IMG/VR virus record: IMGVR_UViG_2671180778_000014
Span: 1 to 35,491 of that record
Direction: 5' to 3' (one strand)
DNA: 35,491 nucleotides
DNA from: a virus
Lineage: Duplodnaviria > Heunggongvirae > Uroviricota > Caudoviricetes
A program made the position numbers and the translations under genes. Of the stretch, positions 962 through 35,491 are shown piece after piece; position 1 is the first letter of the stretch, and every line of letters starts with the position of its first letter. Under the pieces are notes generated by a model, which did not search any database, was not told the origin of the DNA, and saw only the letters and a list, made by a program, of their open reading frames with translations.

Positions 962-1001
962 GCCCCTATCGTTATAATACGCGGTAGGGGCGTTTTTGTT
1001 T
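962..1001 (+). terminator. rho-independent terminator
   Basis: GCCCCTATCG / CGGTAGGGGC stem followed by GTTTTTGTTT. Confidence 0.5.
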
Positions 1002-1010
1002 GGAAATGGT

Positions 1011-2690
1011 ATGAAAACTAAACTGTATTCGTATATTCGCTTCTCGTCTATGCGTCAGAATGATGGTTCGAGTTATGAACGACAAATCAGGATGGCGAGA
1101 GAGGTTGCGGCAAAGTATGACCTTGAACTGGTAAATGATTATCAGGATCTGGGTGTATCTGCGTTTAAGGGTGCTAACTCTAAAACAGGGGCGCTATCTC
1201 GTTTCCTTGATGCAATTGGTAGATCCGTTCCTGTTGGTAGCTGGCTATTCATCGAGAACTTGGACCGTTTATCCCGTGCCGATATTGTCAGTGCGCAGGA
1301 GTTATTCCTTTCAATAATCCGTAGGGGGATAACCATTGTTACTGGCATGGATAACAAGATCTACTCGCTGGATACTGTTACCGCTAACCCGATGGACCTG
1401 ATGTTCTCCATCCTTTTATTCATCCGTGGTAATGAGGAAAGCCAGACTAAGCGCAATCGTACTAACTCAAGCGCATTGATTAAGATTAAAGCTCATCAAG
1501 AAAATCCACAAAATCCGGCAGTGGCTATCGAGGAAGTTGGAAAGAATATGTGGTGGACTGATACCACTTCCGGTTATGTGTGTCCCGATCCGGTCTTCTT
1601 CCCTATTGTTCAGGAGGTTGTGGAATTACGCAGGAATGGACGGTCTACCGCCGAGATACTGGATCACCTTAACGCGACATATACACCACCACCAGCCGCA
1701 AGTCACAAGAGGCATTCAAACTGGTCACGAGCAATGATTGAAAGGTTGTTCCATACCCGCGCTTTGATTGGTATCAAGGAAATCTCTGTAGATGGCGTTA
1801 AGTATGAGTTAAAGGATTATTACCCTCGTGTGCTAGATGACGCTGAGTTTTATCACCTTAAGAAAAGCATTGGTGTTAGAGCATGTAACTATGGAGACAA
1901 AGAAGAAGCTAAACCGATCCCCCTGCTTAGTGGTGTTAATCTGCTGAAATGTGAACATTGCGGTTCCGCTATGGTTAAGGTGAAAGGAACTAACAAACGG
2001 CCTAACCAATATCGTTATTCATGCGATGCAATGCGCTCTAGTCGTATTGCATGTGTGCATACAAACTGGAGTTTTCGAGGTGATCAATTAGAGAAAGCTG
2101 TATTGCAATTGCTGGCTGATAAAATCTGGATTGCTGAGGATAAGGCTAATCCTGTTCCGGCTTTGAAAGTACAGATTGATGAGATATCACGCAAGATTGA
2201 TAACCTGATTACCCTTTCTGCTATGACTGGAGCAACGAAGGAGTTAGCCGACCAGATTACTACCCTCAATAGCGAGCGTGAAACACTCTATAATCAGATT
2301 AAGATGGCAGAAGAGGAAATGTATTCTGTGGACTCTCAAGGCTGGGAGAAGCTCGCAGAATTTGATTTAGAAGATGTTTATAACGAGGATCGCATTAAGG
2401 TCCGGTTTAAGATTAAGCAAGCTCTAAAACGGATCGGGTGTAGCAGGATTGACAAATACAAAAACTTGTTTGTATTGGAATACATTGATGGCAAGACCCA
2501 GAGAGTTGTAATAGAAAATTCAAGAGGACCGAGGAAAGGACAAATCTTTGTCGATTTGAAAACTATCAATGATAGGCAGATTCTGGAGAGTAACGGGCTT
2601 GTTCTGCATCCATGTTTAGACATGCTGACAGATAAAGACTGGAAGCCAGAAGAGGAAATACCAGGTCCATTACAGGAATTTGGAATTTAA
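1011..2690 (+). CDS. large serine recombinase (integrase/resolvase family)
   Basis: N-terminal YSYIRFSSMRQ matches the Y-x-R-x-S-x-x-Q catalytic serine motif; about 560 aa with Cys cluster (CEHCGS...YSCDAM...IAC) and coiled-coil region typical of large serine recombinases. ATG at 1011 preferred over the track's TTG at 996, which lies inside the upstream terminator. Confidence 0.75.
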   Translation: MKTKLYSYIRFSSMRQNDGSSYERQIRMAREVAAKYDLELVNDYQDLGVSAFKGANSKTGALSRFLDAIGRSVPVGSWLFIENLDRLSRADIVSAQELFLSIIRRGITIVTGMDNKIYSLDTVTANPMDLMFSILLFIRGNEESQTKRNRTNSSALIKIKAHQENPQNPAVAIEEVGKNMWWTDTTSGYVCPDPVFFPIVQEVVELRRNGRSTAEILDHLNATYTPPPAASHKRHSNWSRAMIERLFHTRALIGIKEISVDGVKYELKDYYPRVLDDAEFYHLKKSIGVRACNYGDKEEAKPIPLLSGVNLLKCEHCGSAMVKVKGTNKRPNQYRYSCDAMRSSRIACVHTNWSFRGDQLEKAVLQLLADKIWIAEDKANPVPALKVQIDEISRKIDNLITLSAMTGATKELADQITTLNSERETLYNQIKMAEEEMYSVDSQGWEKLAEFDLEDVYNEDRIKVRFKIKQALKRIGCSRIDKYKNLFVLEYIDGKTQRVVIENSRGPRKGQIFVDLKTINDRQILESNGLVLHPCLDMLTDKDWKPEEEIPGPLQEFGI

Positions 2691-2763: not shown

Positions 2764-3762
2764 TTAGAGTGTCTCTAATGGGCTTAAATCGAGTTCTAAG
2801 TCTTCCGGTATTAAATCAGCTAACGGTGCATTCATCCACTGCGATAAATCTCGTTCTATGTCTTCATCACTAATGTAGTTGTTCAGATTGATTGCGTTGG
2901 TATCATCAAAATACATTGGCTTAGATGGGTTGGTGTGGATGTATTCATTGATGAATGATTTAACATCTTTCAGCTTGCTAATCGGTAGCGTTTCTGTGAA
3001 TCCGCTATTCATTACCTTACGTGGGATTTTCTTGCCCTGAATATTCTTTTTAATCCCCATTTCTAAATCACCAGCTTTCCATCCAATGTTAAACAAATGT
3101 GAGCATTCAAAGGTGATTTTCTCGCTGGTGTGCTTCTGGTGTTCTCTTACCCGTTGCATCGGATCTTTGCGAGTGGTAATTCCATATTTGAAAAACTTCT
3201 CGCCAACACGAATTAGATAAAAGTGCATAGGGCGCTGTGCAAACTTGTTTCTGATAACCTGTTTTCTACCATTCTGAATTGATTTAAGTACCCCCCTAAC
3301 CAAAGGGCATGTTAACCCGCCTTGTCTGCGGTTATTGTGTAAATCACCTTTCTTGTGAATCTTTCCGTGGCACTTACAACGAAGAATTAGTTTAGTGTCA
3401 ACACCCTGATAAGGTTCAGCCAGACCTAACACATCCCACCCTATCGGCTTGTAGAACTTGCGAGCGTTTTCTAAGTGTTCTTCTTCGGTAAATCTAAACT
3501 TCTTCTTAGGCGGTGATACTCTATCTTTGCCAGTAAACTGACCAGTTAGAACATGACTAATACATGGCGTTTTAACCTTTCCGTTAACTTCTATGCAAAC
3601 TTTGGTGTTCTGGAATGGTTTCTTTACAGGAAGCACAAAACCACTGTATAACCATCCATGCACTTGACAAACTTTAATGATTCTGGTTTCATATTCGACC
3701 GGAGGGGTCGCACGTTTGCTTTTTGCGGTAAATTCGATATCCTTTGCTAAAGTAGTATTCAT
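2764..3762 (-). CDS. putative GIY-YIG-like endonuclease with N-terminal Cys-rich region
   Basis: 332-aa ORF; central HFYLIRVGEKFFKYGITTRKDPMQRVREH resembles the GIY...YIG...R...H arrangement; N-terminal CxxH/CxxC clusters; family call tentative. Confidence 0.4.
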   Translation of the reverse strand: MNTTLAKDIEFTAKSKRATPPVEYETRIIKVCQVHGWLYSGFVLPVKKPFQNTKVCIEVNGKVKTPCISHVLTGQFTGKDRVSPPKKKFRFTEEEHLENARKFYKPIGWDVLGLAEPYQGVDTKLILRCKCHGKIHKKGDLHNNRRQGGLTCPLVRGVLKSIQNGRKQVIRNKFAQRPMHFYLIRVGEKFFKYGITTRKDPMQRVREHQKHTSEKITFECSHLFNIGWKAGDLEMGIKKNIQGKKIPRKVMNSGFTETLPISKLKDVKSFINEYIHTNPSKPMYFDDTNAINLNNYISDEDIERDLSQWMNAPLADLIPEDLELDLSPLETL

Positions 3763-25613: not shown

Positions 25614-27518
25614 TTAGAACGATGTTACCCAGCTACGGCCTCTATTTGGGCGTCTGGCGATGTTTTTACGTTGTGGTCGTGTGATTGGCTTATTTTCTTC
25701 GATTTGCTCGTCAGATTGCGTTTCAGGAGCTTTTACGGGTTCTTCTGGTTCACGGTTCAAACTATCTTTGATGGCTTCGAGTTTTTCCCATGACATTTTA
25801 TTGAGTACATGGCGAGAAGCAGCATAGGAATAAGCCAGGCAGTCGAGAGCCTCGTTTCGTTGCTGACCAACTTTTACCCAACGTGTGGTATTACCCTGCC
25901 GTTTCAACTGTTCAGAAAGCAATTGCTCGCAATAGTCATCAGGAACGTCACCAATCTGGAAGACAGTGTGAGGATCTCCATCTCTCAAGTTCCGGTTAAT
26001 CATTTCGCGGATCATCGTCTTAAGGTTGTTTACGCCCAGAATTTTAAGGGTAAAACCACCTGTTCTTGTGTCTTTTACCGGAAGGATTGGAGCATCAACA
26101 TTGCTTGCGCCCTTAATGGCTGATAGGTTTTGCCACCGACTACAAAAGCGGTAGATCACTTGCGTAGCACGTCCGTTTGATGAGTCCACGAAAGCGGATA
26201 GCATCGGGATTCGTTGACCGGATCGGGTATAGAATTTAGCTTTCAGGAAGTTGTAAAGCTGGTCATATGCTGGTGATTCGTGGCGTTCGCAGTTCACATC
26301 ATAGAATGATCGGTGATCAACTACGCATATCCCTTTACGCGAGATACCCAGCAAGGTAGATTCCAGACGGTCTTTTTGCTGGTCAACTCCACCTACCAGA
26401 GCCAGAACATCATCAGGGATATTGTCTAAGCTAATATCAGTTTTCAGCGTTTCCAGTTCGTCGGCTGTGCGGTCTTCGTTAAGATCATCGAAGGTTTCAC
26501 CTAAGACAGTGTTATAGAACGTTGCCAGTGACATATTCGCGTAGCTATCAGCAAAATCCACCACACACGCACGGATAGAACTAAACGGAGACATAAGGCG
26601 GTTAGCATGAAAACCGATTACTTCCGCATTAGGTTCGGTGGCGATCCATTCTCCCTTAGCAACAGCACGTAGGCGATCCCCTTCGGTCCAGTCGGTTTCA
26701 CATTCAGGGCAACGATAAACGGCTGTGTCGGGCGAAGGCAGTGATTTACCATTAACTTGATGCCAATCAAAATGGACGTTACTCCATTCCATTACGTGTC
26801 TGTGTCCGCAATGCTGGCATGGAACATAGTATTTTCGTTTATCTGATAGCTCGAATTGTTGGTTGATCGCCCCATCTCGCGACGTTGGAGTAGAAGCAAT
26901 TACGATCCGTGCATCTTCCCCGAAAGTGGTTGCTCGTTGTTCCGCTAGCTGGATCGGGTTCCCTTCATCTGATTCATCAGCCGCATCAACTTCATCAAGA
27001 ATAATCAAAGGCAGTGTCTTACCGCGCAAGTGTGATGGACTGTTCAGCGACATGAAATACATGAATGATCCGTTACGAAGCTGAATAATCGATGAGTTGT
27101 TAACAGCATTACGGTCTGATTTGTCGGTGATCATCGCTTTTAATTCTGGCGTAGCCTCTAATACTGGCTTCACCTTACCAGCGATCCAAGAATTTAGTTC
27201 TCTAACGTTTGATTGCAACACCCCTATATTCGTAGGGTTACTGGCGATCCTGTGGAAGATAATTCCGTTAAGAATCATAGTCTTACCCAACTGCGCCGAA
27301 CATTTAAACACAATTTTTCTACGGTCTTCGGTGATCGCGTCCATCATTCCACGTTGGAAGGGATGCAATTTAATTAGAGATCCGGCTTTAACGCCATCGG
27401 TAGCCACTACGTTAGCCTCTACCCATTCGCTAGGTTTCATGGCTTTAGGCGGTCGAATTGCAGCAGAGATATTTTTAAGAATCTTTTTTAATTTAGCCTT
27501 ATTAGAAATCAGTTTCAT
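25614..27518 (-). CDS. terminase large subunit (lambda gpA family)
   Basis: 634 aa; N-terminal PSEWVEANVV ... LHPFQRGMMDA and C-terminal RNEALDCLAYSYAA match the recalled lambda gpA pattern (AVEWADANYY ... LPFQRAIMNA ... RRNEALDCFVYALAA); Walker A-like QLGKT. Confidence 0.85.
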   Translation of the reverse strand: MKLISNKAKLKKILKNISAAIRPPKAMKPSEWVEANVVATDGVKAGSLIKLHPFQRGMMDAITEDRRKIVFKCSAQLGKTMILNGIIFHRIASNPTNIGVLQSNVRELNSWIAGKVKPVLEATPELKAMITDKSDRNAVNNSSIIQLRNGSFMYFMSLNSPSHLRGKTLPLIILDEVDAADESDEGNPIQLAEQRATTFGEDARIVIASTPTSRDGAINQQFELSDKRKYYVPCQHCGHRHVMEWSNVHFDWHQVNGKSLPSPDTAVYRCPECETDWTEGDRLRAVAKGEWIATEPNAEVIGFHANRLMSPFSSIRACVVDFADSYANMSLATFYNTVLGETFDDLNEDRTADELETLKTDISLDNIPDDVLALVGGVDQQKDRLESTLLGISRKGICVVDHRSFYDVNCERHESPAYDQLYNFLKAKFYTRSGQRIPMLSAFVDSSNGRATQVIYRFCSRWQNLSAIKGASNVDAPILPVKDTRTGGFTLKILGVNNLKTMIREMINRNLRDGDPHTVFQIGDVPDDYCEQLLSEQLKRQGNTTRWVKVGQQRNEALDCLAYSYAASRHVLNKMSWEKLEAIKDSLNREPEEPVKAPETQSDEQIEENKPITRPQRKNIARRPNRGRSWVTSF

Positions 27519-28516: not shown

Positions 28517-28544
28517 CCTATAGAAAACAAAAAAGCCCCGCACT
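28517..28544 (-). terminator. rho-independent terminator (conserved family)
   Basis: minus-strand AGCCTCGC-ctagt-GCGGGGCT followed by TTTTTTG; third copy of the AAAAAAGCCCC...GGCT module. Confidence 0.5.
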
Positions 28545-28558
28545 AGGCGAGGCTAAAA

Positions 28559-29029
28559 TCATACTTTGATTCGGACAAACTTGCATCCTAACTCATTTTC
28601 AATTCTTCGTTGACGGATCTCGTCTTGCTCTTTCTTGTACTGGTGTTCTGGTTCATCAATTTCATAAGCTATATTATTAACCGGATCATAACCATCAATT
28701 CGATAGTTTAACACCCGACACTGGCGAATCAGGTTGATACCTAAAACTTGTTCTATAGTGTTAAGAGCAATCTTTTCGGCAGTAGATAAACCAAAACGTA
28801 AGCCGTTATAGCGTTTATACATCGCATCTGCTAATTGTCCACACAGCATATAGTGACACTTTTTTCGATTTTGGGAATCTACATACACAGATTCAACAAA
28901 AGCAATTCCTGTATTTTTAGAAACTAACCTAACGTCACGCAAAACATCTTGATGTCTCTTTCCAAATTCTTTAGCCAAATCCAGAGAGCTAATCTGTTCT
29001 TTTTCTAATTGTAATGCAGCATTTCCCAT
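28559..29029 (-). CDS. Rha-type N-terminal domain protein with small C-terminal nuclease-like domain
   Basis: LAKEFGKRHQDVLRDVRLV matches the Rha regulatory domain signature; C-terminal YDPVNNIAYEIDEPEH ... KFVRIK has acidic residues compatible with an endonuclease-like fold (tentative). Confidence 0.5.
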   Translation of the reverse strand: MGNAALQLEKEQISSLDLAKEFGKRHQDVLRDVRLVSKNTGIAFVESVYVDSQNRKKCHYMLCGQLADAMYKRYNGLRFGLSTAEKIALNTIEQVLGINLIRQCRVLNYRIDGYDPVNNIAYEIDEPEHQYKKEQDEIRQRRIENELGCKFVRIKV

Positions 29030-29072: not shown

Positions 29073-29906
29073 TTACAGTCCGAAGACTTCCAGAGAGCCA
29101 GCATTCTGACGAATCAGCAAAGCAGTGTTATTAATGATTGCTCGTGAGTTATTCGGCTGTGGCAATTTCAAAGTTGCGGCCTTTTCTTCTTCAAGCAATC
29201 CGAGTTTTACGAGATGCGGGATAGCATCAGCAGTGAACTCGATCTGACCGTGTGCCGACATACGAGCGAACATATAGCCAGGAGGAAGCAGATCATAGCC
29301 TTTAGGCTTACCAGAAGCATCCAGACGACGCTCAAGAACACCAGCAGCACATAAACCTTTCAGAATCATTTGTACCTTCGTAGAGCCTCGTTTTTCGCCT
29401 AATAAGCGGCTAAGACTGTGTGCATCAATAGCTTTACGGATATGAAGATCAACTAATTGTTCTTTTTCTTGAATCAGTTGTTCGTTTGCGGCTTCTAATT
29501 CCATTGCCTCACGAATCCAATCGAGCTTAGTCATGTTTGCGTATGGGTTGACTTGCTGAGAACGCAGTTTTTCATTTTCTTCTTTCAGTCGTTTCCATTC
29601 CTGAATAACAACCATTCGACGCTTAACATCGTAACCAGTGACAAGAGTCAGAGTCATTTCTTCGTCTAGTTGATATTCGTTTTGTTCGCGTCCGTATTGG
29701 TCAAAATAGATGACGCGAAACTTCGCGTGATCTTCATAACCTAGAGCATTCAACATCTTAGTTATATCAACTTTAACTTTGTGGTGTTCTTTTCCGGTAA
29801 ATTCAGCGATCTGACGAGAAGACATGGTCAGTGGTTTGGTGTTATCAACAACCAGAGACACGGAAGCAGTTTTAACAGCAGTATTCATAGTAGTAACAGT
29901 ATTCAT
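29073..29906 (-). CDS. antirepressor-type regulator (Rha N-terminal domain + KilAC-like C-terminal domain)
   Basis: SSRQIAEFTGKEHHKVKVDITKMLNAL ... VIYFDQYGREQNEYQL is Rha-like; C-terminal LSRLLGEKRGSTKVQMILKGLCAAGVLERR ... GYMF is KilAC/Ant-like. Confidence 0.7.
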   Translation of the reverse strand: MNTVTTMNTAVKTASVSLVVDNTKPLTMSSRQIAEFTGKEHHKVKVDITKMLNALGYEDHAKFRVIYFDQYGREQNEYQLDEEMTLTLVTGYDVKRRMVVIQEWKRLKEENEKLRSQQVNPYANMTKLDWIREAMELEAANEQLIQEKEQLVDLHIRKAIDAHSLSRLLGEKRGSTKVQMILKGLCAAGVLERRLDASGKPKGYDLLPPGYMFARMSAHGQIEFTADAIPHLVKLGLLEEEKAATLKLPQPNNSRAIINNTALLIRQNAGSLEVFGL

Positions 29907-29977
29907 AGTAAAAATTCCCCTTAAACGGTTTAGTGATTTGGTCCTCCTAGTTCCGGCATCACTACCGGAACAATTTT

Positions 29978-29984
29978 ATTTATA
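29978..29984 (-). promoter_or_regulatory. candidate -10 element (TATAAAT) of recurring promoter motif
   Basis: minus-strand CTCTTATAAATAAA about 70 nt upstream of the start at 29906. Confidence 0.3.
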
Positions 29985-29998
29985 AGAGCTATTTCTTA

Positions 29999-30331
29999 TT
30001 ACCAATCGATTTCTACCTGATCTTCTTCGTAGTAAGGAATCGCATACTCATAACGCCAGTTTTCGATGATTTCACGTTCTTCATTGGTAAGAAGGTGATT
30101 GCTAACTGGAGTCGCATTATGATTACCAGCTTCGAATTGCTCGCGAACTTCCAGCATTGCATGAATACCAGTTAAAGACATAAGGTCAAACGGGATATGC
30201 ATACTACGTGAGATAGGTTCACGGGAAACGCCCCAATCATTTTCTACATGGCGAGCTTTAACCAAAACGGTTTTACCAATGATTTCTACAGTCCAGTCAT
30301 ACAAGGATTTAGTGATGGTAAATTCTTTCAT
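29999..30331 (-). CDS. hypothetical protein (early-type, downstream of a strong promoter)
   Basis: 110-aa ORF; strong sigma70-like promoter about 50 nt upstream. Confidence 0.5.
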   Translation of the reverse strand: MKEFTITKSLYDWTVEIIGKTVLVKARHVENDWGVSREPISRSMHIPFDLMSLTGIHAMLEVREQFEAGNHNATPVSNHLLTNEEREIIENWRYEYAIPYYEEDQVEIDW

Positions 30332-30387
30332 GTTACATCCTCTTTACAAATCTAGGTCAAATAGGTTCAAAATTGTCAAGTGCGATA

Positions 30388-30416
30388 ATCATAAAAAAGT
30401 CAAAAAATTTTGTCAA
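30388..30416 (-). promoter_or_regulatory. sigma70-type promoter (TTGACA - 17 nt - TATGAT)
   Basis: minus-strand TTGACA at 30416-30411, 17-nt AT-rich spacer, TATGAT at 30393-30388; further TTGACA boxes nearby. Confidence 0.5.
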
Positions 30417-30451
30417 TACCCCTTGACAAGATGCCAAAGGGTTGACCTAAC

Positions 30452-30919
30452 TTACAGCATATCTAAGCCTTCATCGTAACCGTAGAAGCTATTGTGAGAA
30501 GAAAAACAGATTGGTGCGTAGTCTTCGTCTTCCTCGTCTTCTTCATCTTGTTCTGGGGCTTCCTGAGCGGTTTCTTTGCCGTAGTTAAACATTGCTTCAT
30601 CCAGTTCATAGACAGTAACGAAGCTACCTAAATCAATGTCACCTGACCGGACTTCGAAAGGCAGATCATCACGAACAATAATTGCTGGTAGATTCTGGTA
30701 TTTCAGGCGATCTTCATCGGTGAAGCAGTTAACAACGATGGTAGGACGTTTATTTCTTCCGAAAACATACCATGCACTAGAGAAATGGGATTCATCGGTA
30801 TTGTAAAGGATGTTATAACCACGTTCACGGAACATCTTCATTAACTTGTCATTGTGAAAGCTATCTGCATCCAGACCCAGAAGGATAAAAGGAGTAGTGG
30901 TAGTCATTTTGTGGTTCAT
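30452..30919 (-). CDS. hypothetical acidic protein
   Basis: ATG at 30919 preceded by GAGGA with 8-nt spacer; C-terminal EQDEEDEEDEDY acidic tail. Confidence 0.5.
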   Translation of the reverse strand: MNHKMTTTTPFILLGLDADSFHNDKLMKMFRERGYNILYNTDESHFSSAWYVFGRNKRPTIVVNCFTDEDRLKYQNLPAIIVRDDLPFEVRSGDIDLGSFVTVYELDEAMFNYGKETAQEAPEQDEEDEEDEDYAPICFSSHNSFYGYDEGLDML

Positions 30920-30965
30920 AGTGGTAATCCTCAAAAAGAAAGTTAATCAAAGTAATTCTGATATT

Positions 30966-30972
30966 ATTTATA
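30966..30972 (-). promoter_or_regulatory. candidate -10 element (TATAAAT) of recurring promoter motif
   Basis: minus-strand CTCTTATAAATAATA about 50 nt upstream of the start at 30919. Confidence 0.3.
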
Positions 30973-31224
30973 AGAGAAAATTCTTGATGATTTTGGAAGG
31001 GATGGATTCAGTCGGGCTAAAGCCCTCCTTCATAGATTTGATTAAAAGACCAGCAAACGTAACTCGGATCTTATAGTTAATATAGTTATCTTTGAAGAAA
31101 TAATAATCAGGAAGCAATTTCAGCAACCGCAGGTTGCGATCCCGAAGGGATAACCAATACCTTTCTAGAAAGTGATTGTTACTCACTTCGTTCGTTTACT
31201 AGAATCAGTTATCATCTAGTATTA

Positions 31225-31595
31225 AATCCCTTTCTAAGAAAATCCTTTCAAAAGTGAGTGAACGCCGTAGGCGTGAACGTGAGCGAAGCGAACTATCCAA
31301 TCCCTTTCGAATCCTGCTTGCAGGTCTTAGAAGGTGTTGGTGGGCGCTACGCGCACGGCTACGCCGTATTCTTTTTGCGAGATCTTTCTTGAACGTAGTG
31401 AGAGAAAGCGAGCAAAAAGGAGAACGTTAGTTCGAATTTTATATTCTATGGTCTGTTGGGTATAATCCCTTTCAAGATCATACACTTACGTGATTGAAGT
31501 GTAGGGTTAGTGTAGGTGTGTAGGTTTCATAGTGTAGGTTTGAGAGTGTTATAGTGTAGGTTTACTGGCTAGTGTAGTGTAGGCCAATCCCTTTA
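31225..31595 (+). repeat. dispersed direct repeats of the 10-mer AATCCCTTT(C/A)
   Basis: copies at 31225, 31299, 31464 and 31586, a degenerate copy at 31241, and an inverted copy at 35108-35117. Confidence 0.6.
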
Positions 31596-31617
31596 AAGTG
31601 TAGGTGTGTAGTGTAGG
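31499..31617 (+). repeat. iteron array of the heptamer GTGTAGG (about 10 copies, mostly GTGTAGGTT)
   Basis: copies at 31499, 31510, 31518, 31532, 31554, 31577, 31598, 31611 plus GTGTAGT variants at 31572 and 31606, followed by an AT-rich stretch. Confidence 0.7.
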
Positions 31618-31813
31618 TTTTCTATCAAAAATTTTGACAAAAATTATTGTATATTATTTAACCAAAAAATCACCAAAAAGCGGCGTAAATTCATGATTTA
31701 AAAGAAATTTTCAAAAGATCTCCGTGCCATAATAGGTTATAAAGGTTGATAATCATTATTTGCCATTTTCAAACAAAAATTTTGATACACTTTTCTCGCT
31801 TAGATCATTGGTA

Positions 31814-31842
31814 TTGACAAGTGTCAAGAACTATTTTATACT
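31814..31842 (+). promoter_or_regulatory. consensus sigma70 promoter (TTGACA - 17 nt - TATACT)
   Basis: TTGACA at 31814-31819, 17-nt spacer, TATACT at 31837-31842. Confidence 0.6.
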
Positions 31843-31849
31843 TTTTCTC

Positions 31850-32007
31850 ACTGGTAGGGGTTGAAATTTTCCAAACAATCCACATATAGATGATAAGCAT
31901 GATTTTTTCGTGTATAAATACATGCATGAAAAATGATTGTTCACTTCTGAAAACCTCCTGACTCACTGTTAACTCATACAGCACTGGTTAGATACACAGT
32001 GCTTTTT
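31850..32007 (+). ncRNA. candidate small non-coding RNA (promoter-to-terminator unit)
   Basis: about 160 nt between the consensus promoter and an intrinsic terminator (AGCACTG ... CAGTGCT + TTTTT at 31980-32007); no RBS-supported ORF. Confidence 0.3.
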
Positions 32008-32131
32008 CGGTTGAATATTGTACGGATTGATTAATTATTAATCTTCTCTTTAGCAATTCGTGCTCCCTCTGATCGGATATACAGTGGTTTTACAGAGTTT
32101 TTGAAAATCATTTTTATAAATAGAATTGTTC

Positions 32132-32150
32132 AGAGCGAAAAGCTCTTTTT
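32132..32150 (+). terminator. terminator/attenuator hairpin
   Basis: AGAGC-gaaa-GCTCT followed by TTTTT, 35 nt upstream of the 60-aa gene. Confidence 0.4.
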
Positions 32151-32186
32151 AAAAAAATCATTATTCCAGATTTAGGAGGATTCAAG

Positions 32187-32486: not shown

Positions 32487-33488
32487 ATGAAAAATTCTAA
32501 GCGCATCACCTTCAACCTGTTCATTAAATCCAACGGCAAACTGAACATTACCGTTATGGAAGGTAAAGCAAGCAAACAAGACAAATCCTTTGAAGTAGTA
32601 TCCGGTAAGACTCTGACCGAAATGCGTCAGAATGCTGGCATCAAAGACGGTGCTGAATGGCAGATCACTAACCGTTTCGACAAACGTCACGTTAAACCTA
32701 CACTGGTAGAAGGTGAATCCGTTTATTGCTTCGCTCGTGCTGTTAAAGCCGATGAAACTTACTATCTCGCTGTTATTAAAACTGCTTCCGGTTTCCGTGC
32801 TGTAATGCATCACAAGAGCAAGCGTAACGAATACGGCGTAGAGACCCAGGAAGTTGCAAAACGCTTCCGTACTGTTGCTACTGAATCCACTGTAAAAGAT
32901 GTTTCTGGTACTGTTAACACCGCTAAAGGCGGTTCCTTCTACAACCACGCATTACAGGTTACTTCCTCCTTCTTCTGCAAAAAAGAAGCACAGAAAGAAG
33001 TTGCTCCGGTAGTAGTTGAAGAAGTTAAAGAAGAAGTAGCAGTGGTTGAATCTTCCGAAGTTGAAGCACTGAAAGCACGCATCGCTGAACTGGAAGCTGA
33101 AAACGCATCTCTGAAAGCTGAACTGGCAGCACAGGAAACCACTTTCGAAGTAGCAGCGGTTGAAGTTGAAGCAGTTGAAGAAAAATCCATTGATGAAGAA
33201 CTGGAAGAACTCCTTAACTATCGCTGGGGTAACGGTGAAGAAGTAGAACAGGAAGAACAGAAAGAAGCTGATCCGGTAGTAGTTCCGGTTGAAGCAGAAT
33301 CCGCACCAGTTACTAACTTTGAATCCCTGCGCAATAACTTTATGGCTAAATTCAAAACCACTTGGGAAGATACCGAAGAAGAACAAGAAGAGATTGATGT
33401 AAACGAAGACGAGATCCGCGAAGCACAGATGGCACTGCATGACGCTATCTATGACACCAACTACAGCGCCTACGCATACGCAGCTTAA
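32487..33488 (+). CDS. acidic coiled-coil protein with host-optimal codon usage (function unknown)
   Basis: 333 aa; N-terminal ~170-aa Lys/Thr-rich domain, then EALKARIAELEAENASLKAELAAQ coiled coil and acidic tail; codons are almost exclusively E. coli high-expression choices (CTG, CGT, GGT, GCT, TCC, AAC, GAA), unlike the rest of the window. Confidence 0.6.
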   Translation: MKNSKRITFNLFIKSNGKLNITVMEGKASKQDKSFEVVSGKTLTEMRQNAGIKDGAEWQITNRFDKRHVKPTLVEGESVYCFARAVKADETYYLAVIKTASGFRAVMHHKSKRNEYGVETQEVAKRFRTVATESTVKDVSGTVNTAKGGSFYNHALQVTSSFFCKKEAQKEVAPVVVEEVKEEVAVVESSEVEALKARIAELEAENASLKAELAAQETTFEVAAVEVEAVEEKSIDEELEELLNYRWGNGEEVEQEEQKEADPVVVPVEAESAPVTNFESLRNNFMAKFKTTWEDTEEEQEEIDVNEDEIREAQMALHDAIYDTNYSAYAYAA

Positions 33489-34454: not shown

Positions 34455-35006
34455 TTACGACACATCAAATTCATCGTCTTCTTCTGGTTCTTGTTCCGGT
34501 TCATCCATTAATGGTAATTCTTCTTCCTCGTCTTCTCCCAAATCTGCATTTTCGAACAAGTCCCCTACTTCATTTAAACGACGCTCGATGATCTCCCTTA
34601 GCTTATTCTTCAATGTTTTCTGGTCAGTGGCAGATTCGAGAATTTCTAAAGCGTCGATTGTGGCGATCTGCAAAATAGTCTGCTTCACTTTTCCGCAATA
34701 TTCCGCTAGTTGCTGTTCTACATACCCGACCGGAATCAGGAGATTCATTGCTTCCTGGTTCTCTCGTTCGGCTGCGTCCGCTAATGCTCTCTCGCGGCGT
34801 AATTTCTCTACGTCAATTTGTTCCTTGACAGTAGTTTCCTTGAGCGGGTTGATGATATTTTTTAATACCCACTCGGTCCCCTCTTTGGCTGGTACGCGTC
34901 GTGTATTGGTATTAAATGGCATTCCTCGTTCTTGCCATTTCTTAGCGGCGTTAATTGTATAGCCGTATAAGCGGGAAATTTCTGTAAGGGTTAATTCTTC
35001 TTTCAT
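34455..35006 (-). CDS. terminase small subunit candidate (lambda Nu1-like winged HTH)
   Basis: ATG at 35006 preceded by GGAGG; LTLTEISRLYGYTINAAKKWQERGMPF parallels the recalled Nu1 N-terminus (QLADIFGASIRTIQNWQEQGMPV); about 180 aa with acidic C-terminus. Confidence 0.45.
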   Translation of the reverse strand: MKEELTLTEISRLYGYTINAAKKWQERGMPFNTNTRRVPAKEGTEWVLKNIINPLKETTVKEQIDVEKLRRERALADAAERENQEAMNLLIPVGYVEQQLAEYCGKVKQTILQIATIDALEILESATDQKTLKNKLREIIERRLNEVGDLFENADLGEDEEEELPLMDEPEQEPEEDDEFDVS

Positions 35007-35491
35007 CCGGTTATCCTCCATTAAATTTGCGTAAAATTATTTATCTGATCTGCGCATTCAGGAGAGCGCCTAAAACGCTTTATAACGAAGGGAAAGATCG
35101 AGGCGGGGAAAGGGATTGGCTGGTGTTAATAGTCGCGTAGCGACCGCGCTGGTGGGCTGCACTGCACCTGTTTTGAAATCTCACACGCACATCAAAAACC
35201 GGGGTGCCGAAAACTCGCTTTATTTCACCCGTGGAACAGTACCTTTTGATTTTGTCAAGTCTTTTTTATAAATAATCGAAAATATTTTTCACACGAGGGC
35301 AAATCATGAATACTAAAGATATTAAGATTGACTTTGAAACTGTTGATGACGTTCGGGAACATCGCATTGATTCTACTGGCTGAATCTTCCAGCTTACTAA
35401 CCCCCCTATTGGATTGATTATCTATGTAGCAGAAGATGACGTGTACGCTATATGGGATGGACAGGATGAGTTTAAAGGCGGGAATAGCCAT

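Follow-up and report, generated by a model that had tools for sequence, protein, structure and literature searches.

Two small proteins of a temperate phage, both of the early type and read as lying behind one strong promoter, raise the question of whether they form a pair and whether they act against the host. They had been placed together at positions 29999-30934 of the window (the whole 35,491-nucleotide stretch of viral DNA analysed here) in an earlier note that took their positioning as a mark of host-takeover or anti-defence genes. Both open reading frames are borne out on the minus strand: gene A, of 110 aa, at 29999-30331, and gene B, of 155 aa, at 30452-30919, with the end given as 30934 corresponding to an in-frame TTG upstream of the B ATG. 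We find that A and B are not a pair: each is a gene of its own, within the regulatory region of a prophage.

The prophage belongs to an uncharacterised, temperate family of Enterobacterales elements of ~36 kb that encode a large serine integrase and are inserted in hicB or ycdX. The family has never been isolated or described, although 58 of 5426 complete E. coli genomes (~1%) carry the element; a literature search for a prophage combining hicB or ycdX insertion with a serine recombinase gave no relevant match. A and B occupy its sole non-structural region, which uses host-type sigma-70 signals, and neither gene could be assigned to a family, in keeping with the original description of both as early-type and of unknown function. 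Among the phage's genes, none for a helicase, primase or loader is recognisable, and neither the recombination directionality factor nor the lysogeny repressor that the element needs is recognisable in the window. An Rfam search of 27.5-35.5 kb returned no RNA family.

Transcription of the minus strand runs from B through the promoter to A, Rha277 and Rha156, in the following arrangement.

30965..30973, minus strand: TTATAAATA box upstream of B, -10-like, 46 nt 5' of the B start and without a conserved -35; putative weak or activator-dependent promoter of B
30927..30932, minus strand: Shine-Dalgarno sequence of B, GAGGAT, 7 nt before the ATG; conserved in 37 loci
30452..30919, minus strand: gene B, 155 aa from the ATG, with a core at residues ~10-112, an acidic linker at 116-133 and a C-terminal motif at 134-155, DYAPICFSSHNSFYGYDEGLDML
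30412..30446, minus strand: RNA hairpin after B, beginning 6 nt past the B stop codon; its 3' arm includes the -35 of the next promoter
30388..30416, minus strand: sigma-70 promoter TTGACA-17-TATGAT, 11/12 consensus; drives A, Rha277 and Rha156
30338..30343, minus strand: Shine-Dalgarno sequence of A, AGAGGA
29999..30331, minus strand: gene A, 110 aa, acidic, pI 4.8; optional cassette, leader of the Rha operon
29950..29985, minus strand: distal cassette junction, a second TTATAAATA box (29977-29985) and then the hairpin GTTCCGG-N8-CCGGAAC (29950-29971), ahead of the Rha277 ribosome-binding site
29073..29906, minus strand: Rha277, Rha/antirepressor-type, 277 aa (Pfam Phage_pRha, 2.8e-11; PHROG anti-repressor families, 1e-14 to 1e-17)
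28559..29029, minus strand: Rha156, a second Rha-N gene, 156 aa, with a Vsr/DUF559-like nuclease C-terminus
28534..28554, minus strand: intrinsic terminator closing the leftward operon, an 8-bp stem with 6 GC pairs followed by a T-run

Because the promoter is situated between B and A, it drives A and the two downstream Rha-type genes, and not B. The near-consensus promoter that had been reported ahead of the 110-aa protein is real, but the 110-aa gene alone stands behind it, and the idea of two proteins sharing it fails for B. This promoter is one of two matches to at least 11/12 positions in the whole 35.5-kb window, where ~1 is expected. Its -35 block, TTGTCAAGGGGTATTGACA, does not vary between E. 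coli, Salmonella and Proteus, and the promoter is kept even in elements without the cassette; in Proteus it drives the Rha gene directly. Rha277 is the conserved payload of this promoter. Rha156 varies between elements, and in one locus (L001) it is missing and replaced by a 75-aa plus-strand gene.

B would be transcribed from its own TATAAATA-type signal, and its transcript would be closed by the stable hairpin that follows the gene. The TATAAATA box lies 5' of B in 37 of 37 loci, Salmonella and Proteus included, and the 9-mer TTATAAATA occurs in 7 copies in the window against 0.87 expected. The hairpin folds with a dG of -20.5 kcal/mol (z = -3.67), and its arms are preserved in Proteus and, with a single U-G to C-G change, in Salmonella; it probably forms the 3' end or terminator of the B transcript, and is without a canonical U-tract. 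The ATG start of B is supported by an aligned GAGG-N8-ATG in distant relatives.

Gene A is under purifying selection (dN/dS 0.25) and is present in 27/58 complete E. coli genomes and 17/33 IMG/VR loci. Between identical flanks, its slot can instead hold alternative ORFs that are small, unrelated and basic, with a pI of ~10 as against 4.8 (net charge -10) for A. Some small ORF always occupies the slot in E. coli and Salmonella, the 57-aa leader ORF of Salmonella being homologous to a 48-aa ORF of E. coli, and Proteus elements have no leader ORF. A itself keeps ~91-93% identity whatever B allele accompanies it (B range 56-100%). A is an accessory gene, exchanged as a cassette downstream of a promoter that is both strong and conserved.

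Gene B, by contrast with this cassette, is a family-wide core gene, fixed beside a likely replication origin. It is intact and at the same position in 32 of 33 IMG/VR loci, the exception (L036) holding only a 38-aa remnant; its homologues occur in E. coli/Shigella, Salmonella and Proteus, and it is syntenic in the Salmonella and Proteus elements too. Selection on B is purifying overall (dN/dS 0.35), with no segment above 0.5, and its alleles diverge widely within one species, from 42 to 100% identity. The B allele co-varied with none of the features compared: iteron type, the 333-aa and 60-aa alleles, Rha, TerL, TerS and the att site. Because the B allele tracks no compared locus, no specific phage partner is indicated.

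Comparison of A and B with Pfam, PHROGs, NCBIfam and PADLOC, and of their profiles with PDB sequences, gave nothing above noise, which agrees with the earlier observation that they carry no recognisable motifs, and neither was assigned with confidence to a housekeeping or structural family. A profile re-search for A homologues recovered the same 8 clusters and nothing further, and an exhaustive HMM search of 1.84 billion representatives returned 11 B matches only. A scan of GTDB representative genomes found no homologues, and tblastn likewise detected neither A nor B in 50,697 phage records or 72,556 plasmids. The fold search that had been proposed for these proteins was uninformative for both in BFVD and the PDB (for B, no BFVD match at E ≤0.001). 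DUF4835 appeared for B in 3 of 11 members at E 0.0045-0.035, below threshold and uninformative. A DNA-binding lead for A, HTH_38, gave weak matches in 6 of 9 homologues (E ≥0.017) within residues 79-95 only; we dropped it because it covers only 16 aa of one helix. Both proteins are functionally uncharacterised phage dark matter of an ordinary kind, with a few testable leads.

Structure prediction with AF2 gave models of moderate quality (pLDDT ~69). The core of B (pLDDT 80-87) is modelled as a parallel alpha/beta sandwich, and residues 116-155 (pLDDT <50) as disordered. In this moderate-quality model, the core appears to be a P-loop-kinase-like alpha/beta fold without the nucleotide-binding loop. 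The Walker A motif GxxxxGK[ST] is not present: GLDADSFHNDK follows strand 1, and GK[ST] occurs in no family member. P-loop NMP and sugar kinases (gluconate kinase, 1knq; T4 dNMP kinase, 1dek) and MAGUK pseudo-kinase domains share 10-13% identity with B and give no profile match, and B differs from the P-loop kinases in having LLGLDADSFHNDK where Walker A would be; the match does not go beyond a generic fold, and P-loop folds designed de novo reach similar scores. Several polar residues of the core are invariant (R33, N36, N56, T60, D68, R71, Y74 and D107) and could mark an enzymatic or ligand-binding site, as opposed to a passive scaffold.

Much of the acidic charge of B lies in its disordered end. 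The protein has a pI of 4.3 and its core one of 5.25; 15 of its 32 acidic residues fall within residues 116-155, and these last 40 residues include no basic one. The long acidic tail attributed to B is accurate for the linker at 116-133, but the end itself (134-155) is a conserved, mostly non-acidic motif. The terminal motif, DYAPIxFSS..GFYGYDEGLDML, is conserved among proteins with only 35-42% overall identity, and the C-terminus reads [GA][LF][DEQ]ML in all alleles, with the terminal Leu invariant and M154 nearly so.

The region that B always adjoins is 1.25 kb long and free of ORFs, and holds iterons and an AT-rich stretch:

31498..31680, no strand assigned: iteron array and AT stretch, 8 same-strand GTGTAGG copies in 119 nt, then 87% AT

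From its sequence organisation, we regard this region as a putative origin; no DnaA boxes were found in it. The iteron type pairs with an allele of a 333-aa protein in 12 of 12 loci, as against 0 of 17 with other iterons. A 60-aa gene that intervenes between the iterons and the 333-aa gene is shuffled, while iteron type and 333-aa allele co-vary.

The reading that we prefer, at low confidence and a probability of roughly 0.4, takes A and B as separate units, A being an accessory protein that binds some target and B an adaptor that docks by its tail and serves replication or regulation. The disordered acidic linker of B would present the conserved C-terminal peptide, through which we infer that B docks onto a conserved partner; the likeliest candidates would be an initiator encoded by the phage itself and the host machinery for replication or transcription. 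The strong sigma-70 promoter belongs to the Rha (antirepressor-type) operon, and A is one of at least 3 interchangeable first-gene cassettes in the leader of that operon in E. coli elements; in about half of these elements it has displaced the ancestral ORF, which was small and basic. On this footing, A may be a non-enzymatic, acidic accessory binding protein that becomes abundant whenever the Rha operon fires, with a host, defence or rival-phage target. If the inference on B holds, it would be a compact example of a phage adaptor working via a short C-terminal docking peptide.

Against this stands the original suggestion, that both proteins are early effectors of host takeover or anti-defence (DNA-mimic anti-restriction proteins or defence inhibitors) made straight after infection or induction. 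A and B are small and acidic early-region phage proteins, as are Ocr and ArdA; both are orphans restricted to one phage family, and they are located in a sigma-70-driven non-structural region. The presence or absence of A is typical of accessory genes, and the wide divergence of B alleles within one species also agrees with such a role. However, the suggestion gains no positive support: unlike Ocr and ArdA, the proteins have no PHROG, Pfam or fold match, anti-restriction and anti-defence PHROGs included, no homologues were found outside the prophage family, and the negative charge of B may lie largely in a disordered linker and not on a rigid, folded DNA-like surface. For A, an anti-defence function is plausible: this orphan is acidic and optional, and the slot that it occupies after the strong promoter is prone to swaps. 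It is less likely for B, a core gene that keeps its synteny in E. coli, Salmonella and Proteus, lies by the putative origin and has its own weak promoter signal in place of the strong one; the overall purifying selection on B likewise speaks against it, and what is seen of B would suit a role in the phage life cycle better than that of an accessory in an arms race. That both proteins are effectors seems unlikely.

A second alternative concerns A alone, and makes it a regulatory leader protein of the antirepressor operon that tunes the promoter or Rha/Ant output, analogous to Arc of P22 or Icd of P1. The immI regions of these phages are organised as Pant-arc-ant in P22 and c4-icd-ant in P1 and P7, and the locus described here resembles them in that a host-type promoter of great strength precedes a small ORF and, after it, an antirepressor-type gene, all lying apart from the main control region. 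A follows the promoter as its first ORF and directly precedes Rha277, its slot is never empty in E. coli or Salmonella, and a dyad, TTGTCAA-N6-TTGACAA, overlaps the -35. We down-weighted this dyad as an operator because its spacing shifts by 1 nt in Salmonella while the overlapping RNA hairpin is kept through the U-G to C-G change, which favours the hairpin. Further, A resembles Arc and Icd neither in sequence nor in fold: its model, built on 9 similar sequences, has no ribbon-helix-helix or HTH fold, and the HTH_38 matches described above are confined to part of one helix. The downstream gene carries a Phage_pRha domain and not those of P22 Ant, our analysis identified neither a divergent mnt-like gene nor an antisense RNA, and the leader ORF is interchangeable and is missing in Proteus. 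As A is acidic and the other occupants of the slot are basic and unrelated, no common function is evident, and the 92 nt and hairpin that separate A from Rha277 leave the two uncoupled in translation. We consider a leader regulator of this kind quite improbable.

A more specific version of the adaptor reading of B assigns it to replication from the adjoining iteron region. B would be an origin-associated adaptor with a degenerate P-loop fold, whose linker and GLDML/DYAPIxFSS blocks dock onto some component of the host replisome, such as DnaN or an SSB client, and which, together with the 333-aa iteron-matched initiator, starts iteron-origin replication for a phage without its own helicase, primase or loader; alternatively, the same contact would shut down host replication. 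SSB and T7 gp2.5 have acidic C-terminal tails, and beta-clamp-binding pentapeptides follow the consensus QL[SD]LF. Like SSB and gp2.5, B has a disordered, highly acidic C-terminal segment whose tip is a conserved hydrophobic peptide, its last residue being an invariant Leu, a likeness that serves as a lead; unlike them, its core has no OB fold. The GLDML-COOH end of B loosely resembles QLDLF, in that the L, D and hydrophobic positions fit and the conserved Gln is missing, and the DYAPIxFSS block is without a counterpart in SSB, gp2.5 or clamp-binding peptides. In this detailed form the proposal is decidedly unlikely.

B could instead be another life-cycle regulator, either a serine integrase directionality factor or a repressor or anti-repressor partner controlling two strong divergent promoters. 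The element requires a directionality factor and a lysogeny repressor for which the window offers no recognisable candidate, the directionality factors of serine integrases are not known to form a single family, and B is a core gene in a divergent control region. Yet the B allele is independent of the integration site (hicB vs ycdX), the protein is acidic and has no DNA-binding fold, and the integrase gene lies ~28 kb away, which makes such a regulator very unlikely.

A further reading of A is moron-type lysogenic conversion, in which the strong promoter would be on in the lysogen and A would be a fitness or superinfection-exclusion factor: the cassette-like distribution between conserved flanks, the near-consensus host-type promoter and the conservation of A across otherwise mosaic elements would suit it, but the promoter is outside the cassette, as part of the Rha operon conserved without it, constitutive antirepressor-type expression in a stable lysogen is unlikely, PADLOC gave no match and A has no visible signal peptide or membrane segment, so that we hold the idea to be highly improbable. 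Like lambdoid morons and T4-like PeSL cassettes, A comes and goes between flanks that are near-identical, with the promoter block before it and the TTATAAATA box and hairpin after it, and its history is decoupled from neighbouring alleles. Unlike them, it has no promoter or terminator of its own and rides in a conserved operon leader, in a slot that otherwise holds an ancestral small ORF.

What these results provide is mostly clarification, in that two mystery proteins behind a promoter become a transcription-unit map with a core gene and a swappable cassette; to a phage biologist, nothing here is surprising yet. If our reading holds, new small effectors could well be sought in the A slot, where three unrelated cassettes are already seen in E. 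coli, and the conserved promoter/hairpin module would be a ready-made strong expression signal common to three genera. The hairpin at the distal junction (29950-29971) is without a U-tract, and in some loci (L006 and L034) a different hairpin occupies the same position.

In this temperate phage or prophage genome, the 155-aa gene B stands alone as a core gene, and the 110-aa gene A is the accessory first gene of an operon encoding two Rha-type proteins; this layout is solid. The features of the window are as follows:

996-2690, plus strand: large serine recombinase
2.7-27.5 kb, minus strand: lysis, tail, head, portal and gpA-type large terminase gene block
2764-3762, minus strand: 332-aa endonuclease-type protein (PHROG endonuclease, 4e-20; faint CapR-homology match)
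25614-27518: gpA-type large terminase
28554..28534: canonical terminator ending the Rha unit
29029..28559, minus strand: second Rha-N protein, 156 aa
29906..29073, minus strand: Rha/antirepressor-type gene (Phage_pRha, 2.8e-11; PHROG anti-repressor, 1e-14 to 1e-17)
30331..29999, minus strand: A, 110 aa, ribosome-binding site AGAGGA
30416..30388, minus strand: near-consensus promoter TTGACA-17-TATGAT
30919..30452, minus strand: B, 155 aa counted from ATG, ribosome-binding site GAGGAT
30935-32186: ORF-free region, 1.25 kb
31814-31842, plus strand: second near-consensus promoter, TTGACA-17-TATACT, facing away, towards an operon of 60-aa, 333-aa and 80-aa genes
32487-33488, plus strand: gene for a 333-aa coiled-coil/acidic protein
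34455-35021: Nu1-like small terminase
3797, 29977, 30965, 32114, 32478, 34439 and 35266: copies of the 9-mer TTATAAATA

Both A and B are genes. A TTG at 30934 would lengthen B by five codons, but the ATG is confirmed as its start because distant relatives align at GAGG-N8-ATG. Homologues of B form 80 clusters in E. coli and Shigella (43-94% identity, every one annotated 'hypothetical'), with remoter copies in Salmonella enterica and Proteus (35-42%); those of A form only 8 clusters (62-96%). Pairwise Nei-Gojobori estimates of dN/dS are 0.35 for B and 0.25 for A, and B is frameshifted or truncated in some prophages, as expected of decaying elements. Searches of Pfam, PHROGs, NCBIfam, PADLOC and PDB sequences with single sequences and family profiles returned nothing significant for either protein, in agreement with the earlier note's description of both as of unknown function, and neither is encoded by sequenced phage isolates or plasmids. 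A and B represent new orphan families of a well-known sort: early-region phage genes without an assigned function.

The earlier note had placed both proteins behind one strong promoter, which proved half right. The near-consensus promoter at 30416..30388 is borne out, but it comes after B and before A in the direction of transcription, so its targets are A, the Rha/antirepressor-type gene and the second Rha-N protein, in that order; B is a separate transcription unit. Only two promoter matches of at least 11/12 occur in the whole window, with about one expected by chance; the count by itself is not significant, but placement and conservation are. The block containing the -35, TTGTCAAGGGGTATTGACA, does not vary among the elements of E. 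coli, Salmonella and Proteus, even though the identity of their B proteins is only ~35%, and in each genus a -10 follows at the correct distance (TATGAT, TAGCAT and TAGAAT). This -35 sits in the 3' arm of a strong RNA hairpin predicted directly 3' of the B stop codon (dG -20.5 kcal/mol, z -3.7), the arms of which are retained in Proteus and, with U-G replaced by C-G, in Salmonella. Upstream of B, a TATAAATA box lies 47-53 nt from the ATG in 37/37 loci spanning three genera; it is not accompanied there by a conserved -35.

A behaves as an interchangeable cassette. Seventeen of the 33 IMG/VR relatives carry it, as do 27 of 58 E. coli genomes; in loci without it, the promoter block and the distal junction (a TTATAAATA box and a hairpin) are retained and enclose other ORFs, namely a 48-aa basic ORF in 14 loci and a 59-aa basic ORF in one. 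The Salmonella slot holds a 57-aa ORF, which over its C-terminal 24 residues shares 58% identity with the 48-aa ORF, and in Proteus there is no leader ORF and the promoter drives the Rha gene directly. Judging from these occupants, a small basic ORF probably came first and was later replaced by A. A remains 91-93% identical while the adjoining B ranges from 56% to 100%, demonstrating recombination at the junctions. The A protein is acidic (pI 4.8), and neither a membrane segment nor a catalytic motif is present. A model built on 9 similar sequences (pLDDT 69.5) shows a three-stranded meander and two helices and has no informative structural neighbours. Weak matches to HTH_38 covered 16 residues only and were rejected. 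As to function, we infer, as the most economical reading, that A is an abundant small binding protein whose target belongs to the host, a defence system or a competitor. Less favoured is a regulatory function like that of Arc or Icd, since the slot is filled by chemically dissimilar products and may also be left unoccupied.

B was modelled with AlphaFold2 on 35 sequences. Residues of about 10-112 form a confident alpha/beta core (pLDDT 80-87; core pI 5.25), in which the Walker A position reads GLDADSFHNDK, so that the nucleotide loop is gone. The polar residues R33, N36, N56, T60, D68, R71, Y74 and D107 are invariant, also in the Salmonella and Proteus proteins, and mark some functional surface. 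Region 116-155 is disordered, and its last 40 residues include 15 acidic and no basic ones. What had been described as a long acidic tail is an acidic linker at residues 116-133; the last 22 residues are instead a conserved motif, DYAPI/VxFSSxxGFYGY[DN][ED][GA][LF][DEQ]ML, with an invariant terminal Leu. In SSB and T7 gp2.5, docking peptides are displayed at the conserved hydrophobic end of a flexible acidic arm, and B has an arm of this general build; its last five residues loosely resemble the beta-clamp-binding pentapeptide.

B occupies the same place in every related locus examined except one with a deletion, always adjoining an ORF-free region of 1.2-1.4 kb. In the window this region has no Rfam match or DnaA box; it contains 8 GTGTAGG iterons on one strand within 119 nt, directly followed by an 87% AT stretch (31498-31680). 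Across 29 loci, repeat type matches the allele of the 333-aa protein: AGTGTAGG repeats are paired with the window's allele in 12/12 loci, and this allele occurs in 0/17 loci with TTCAGGGGCAAA or CGCGGGGA repeats. L025, the one TTCAGGGGCAAA/CGCGGGGA-type locus inspected, carries a different 313-aa protein of similar build in its place. Because the 60-aa gene between repeats and 333-aa gene is shuffled independently, this matching argues for a functional repeat-protein pair, which, judged from sequence, would most simply be an origin and its initiator, or else another specificity pair. Neither the iteron region nor the 333-aa protein has any known family. Additional GTGTAGG copies on the minus strand, at 32697, 33705 and 33723, fall within the 333-aa gene and at the 3' terminus of the 80-aa gene; together they may make up another iteron cluster on either side of the putative initiator's gene, an arrangement recalling incC/incA of P1.

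The B allele does not co-vary with iteron type, 333-aa allele, 60-aa allele, att site, TerL, TerS or Rha; B is a core life-cycle gene adjoining the putative origin, and the allele data point to no particular partner. Its core status, cross-genus synteny, location next to the putative origin, degenerate nucleotide-binding fold and conserved docking-type tail favour an adaptor function, in replication or regulation, over an arms-race role; an enzyme or a recombination directionality factor is also conceivable. The host-takeover or anti-defence role suggested earlier for both proteins is thus plausible, if unproven, for A and doubtful for the core, syntenic gene B.

The non-structural genes are all confined to 27.6-34.4 kb, and the whole 7-kb regulatory region separates the small from the large terminase. 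Nowhere in the element can a CI-like repressor, Cro, excisionase, helicase, primase or loader be recognised. Megablast against phage isolates gave no match, the large terminase is at most 44% identical to that of any isolate in the collection, and we found no literature on the element. The region occurs in 58/5426 complete E. coli genomes, chromosomally in every case; annotated examples are compact prophages of ~36-38 kb in hicB (adjoining hicA and yncJ) or in ycdX. Salmonella prophages of like architecture are inserted in ycdX, and those of Proteus adjoin a truncated ycdX homologue. Mosaicism in the family is extreme, with at least two deeply divergent alleles (about 55-60% versus >90% identity) for each of TerL, TerS, Rha, B and the 60-aa and 333-aa genes; these alleles assort independently among related loci.

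The control region is arguably more interesting than A and B themselves, given its iteron/initiator matching, its recurrent TTATAAATA boxes and the lack of a recognisable repressor or replication enzyme. TTATAAATA occurs 7 times in the window against 0.87 expected; five copies are correctly oriented 13-71 nt upstream of gene starts (the 332-aa nuclease, the 277-aa Rha gene, B, the 60-aa gene and a 56-aa membrane ORF), and the 9-mer may represent either a class of promoter specific to the phage or a sequence of mosaic junctions. A LexA-box-like CTGTTAACTCATACAG lies at 31966-31981, ~125 nt downstream of the 31814-31842 promoter, with CTGTATTAATTAACAG in its place in L038. In the 156-aa protein (28559-29029), a Rha N-terminal domain is joined to a nuclease domain resembling Vsr/DUF559 (PADLOC mREase_II, 6.8e-7; Pfam DUF559 and MTES_1575, weak); its gene is a variable cassette, replaced in the closest E. 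coli relative by a 75-aa plus-strand gene. In Proteus (L039, 9236-9892), a gene for a 218-aa CapR/MUG113-like nuclease interrupts the ORF-free region immediately upstream of B; this protein and the 332-aa protein resemble mobile homing-type nucleases that rely on the same signals, a TATAAATA box and a ribosome-binding site.
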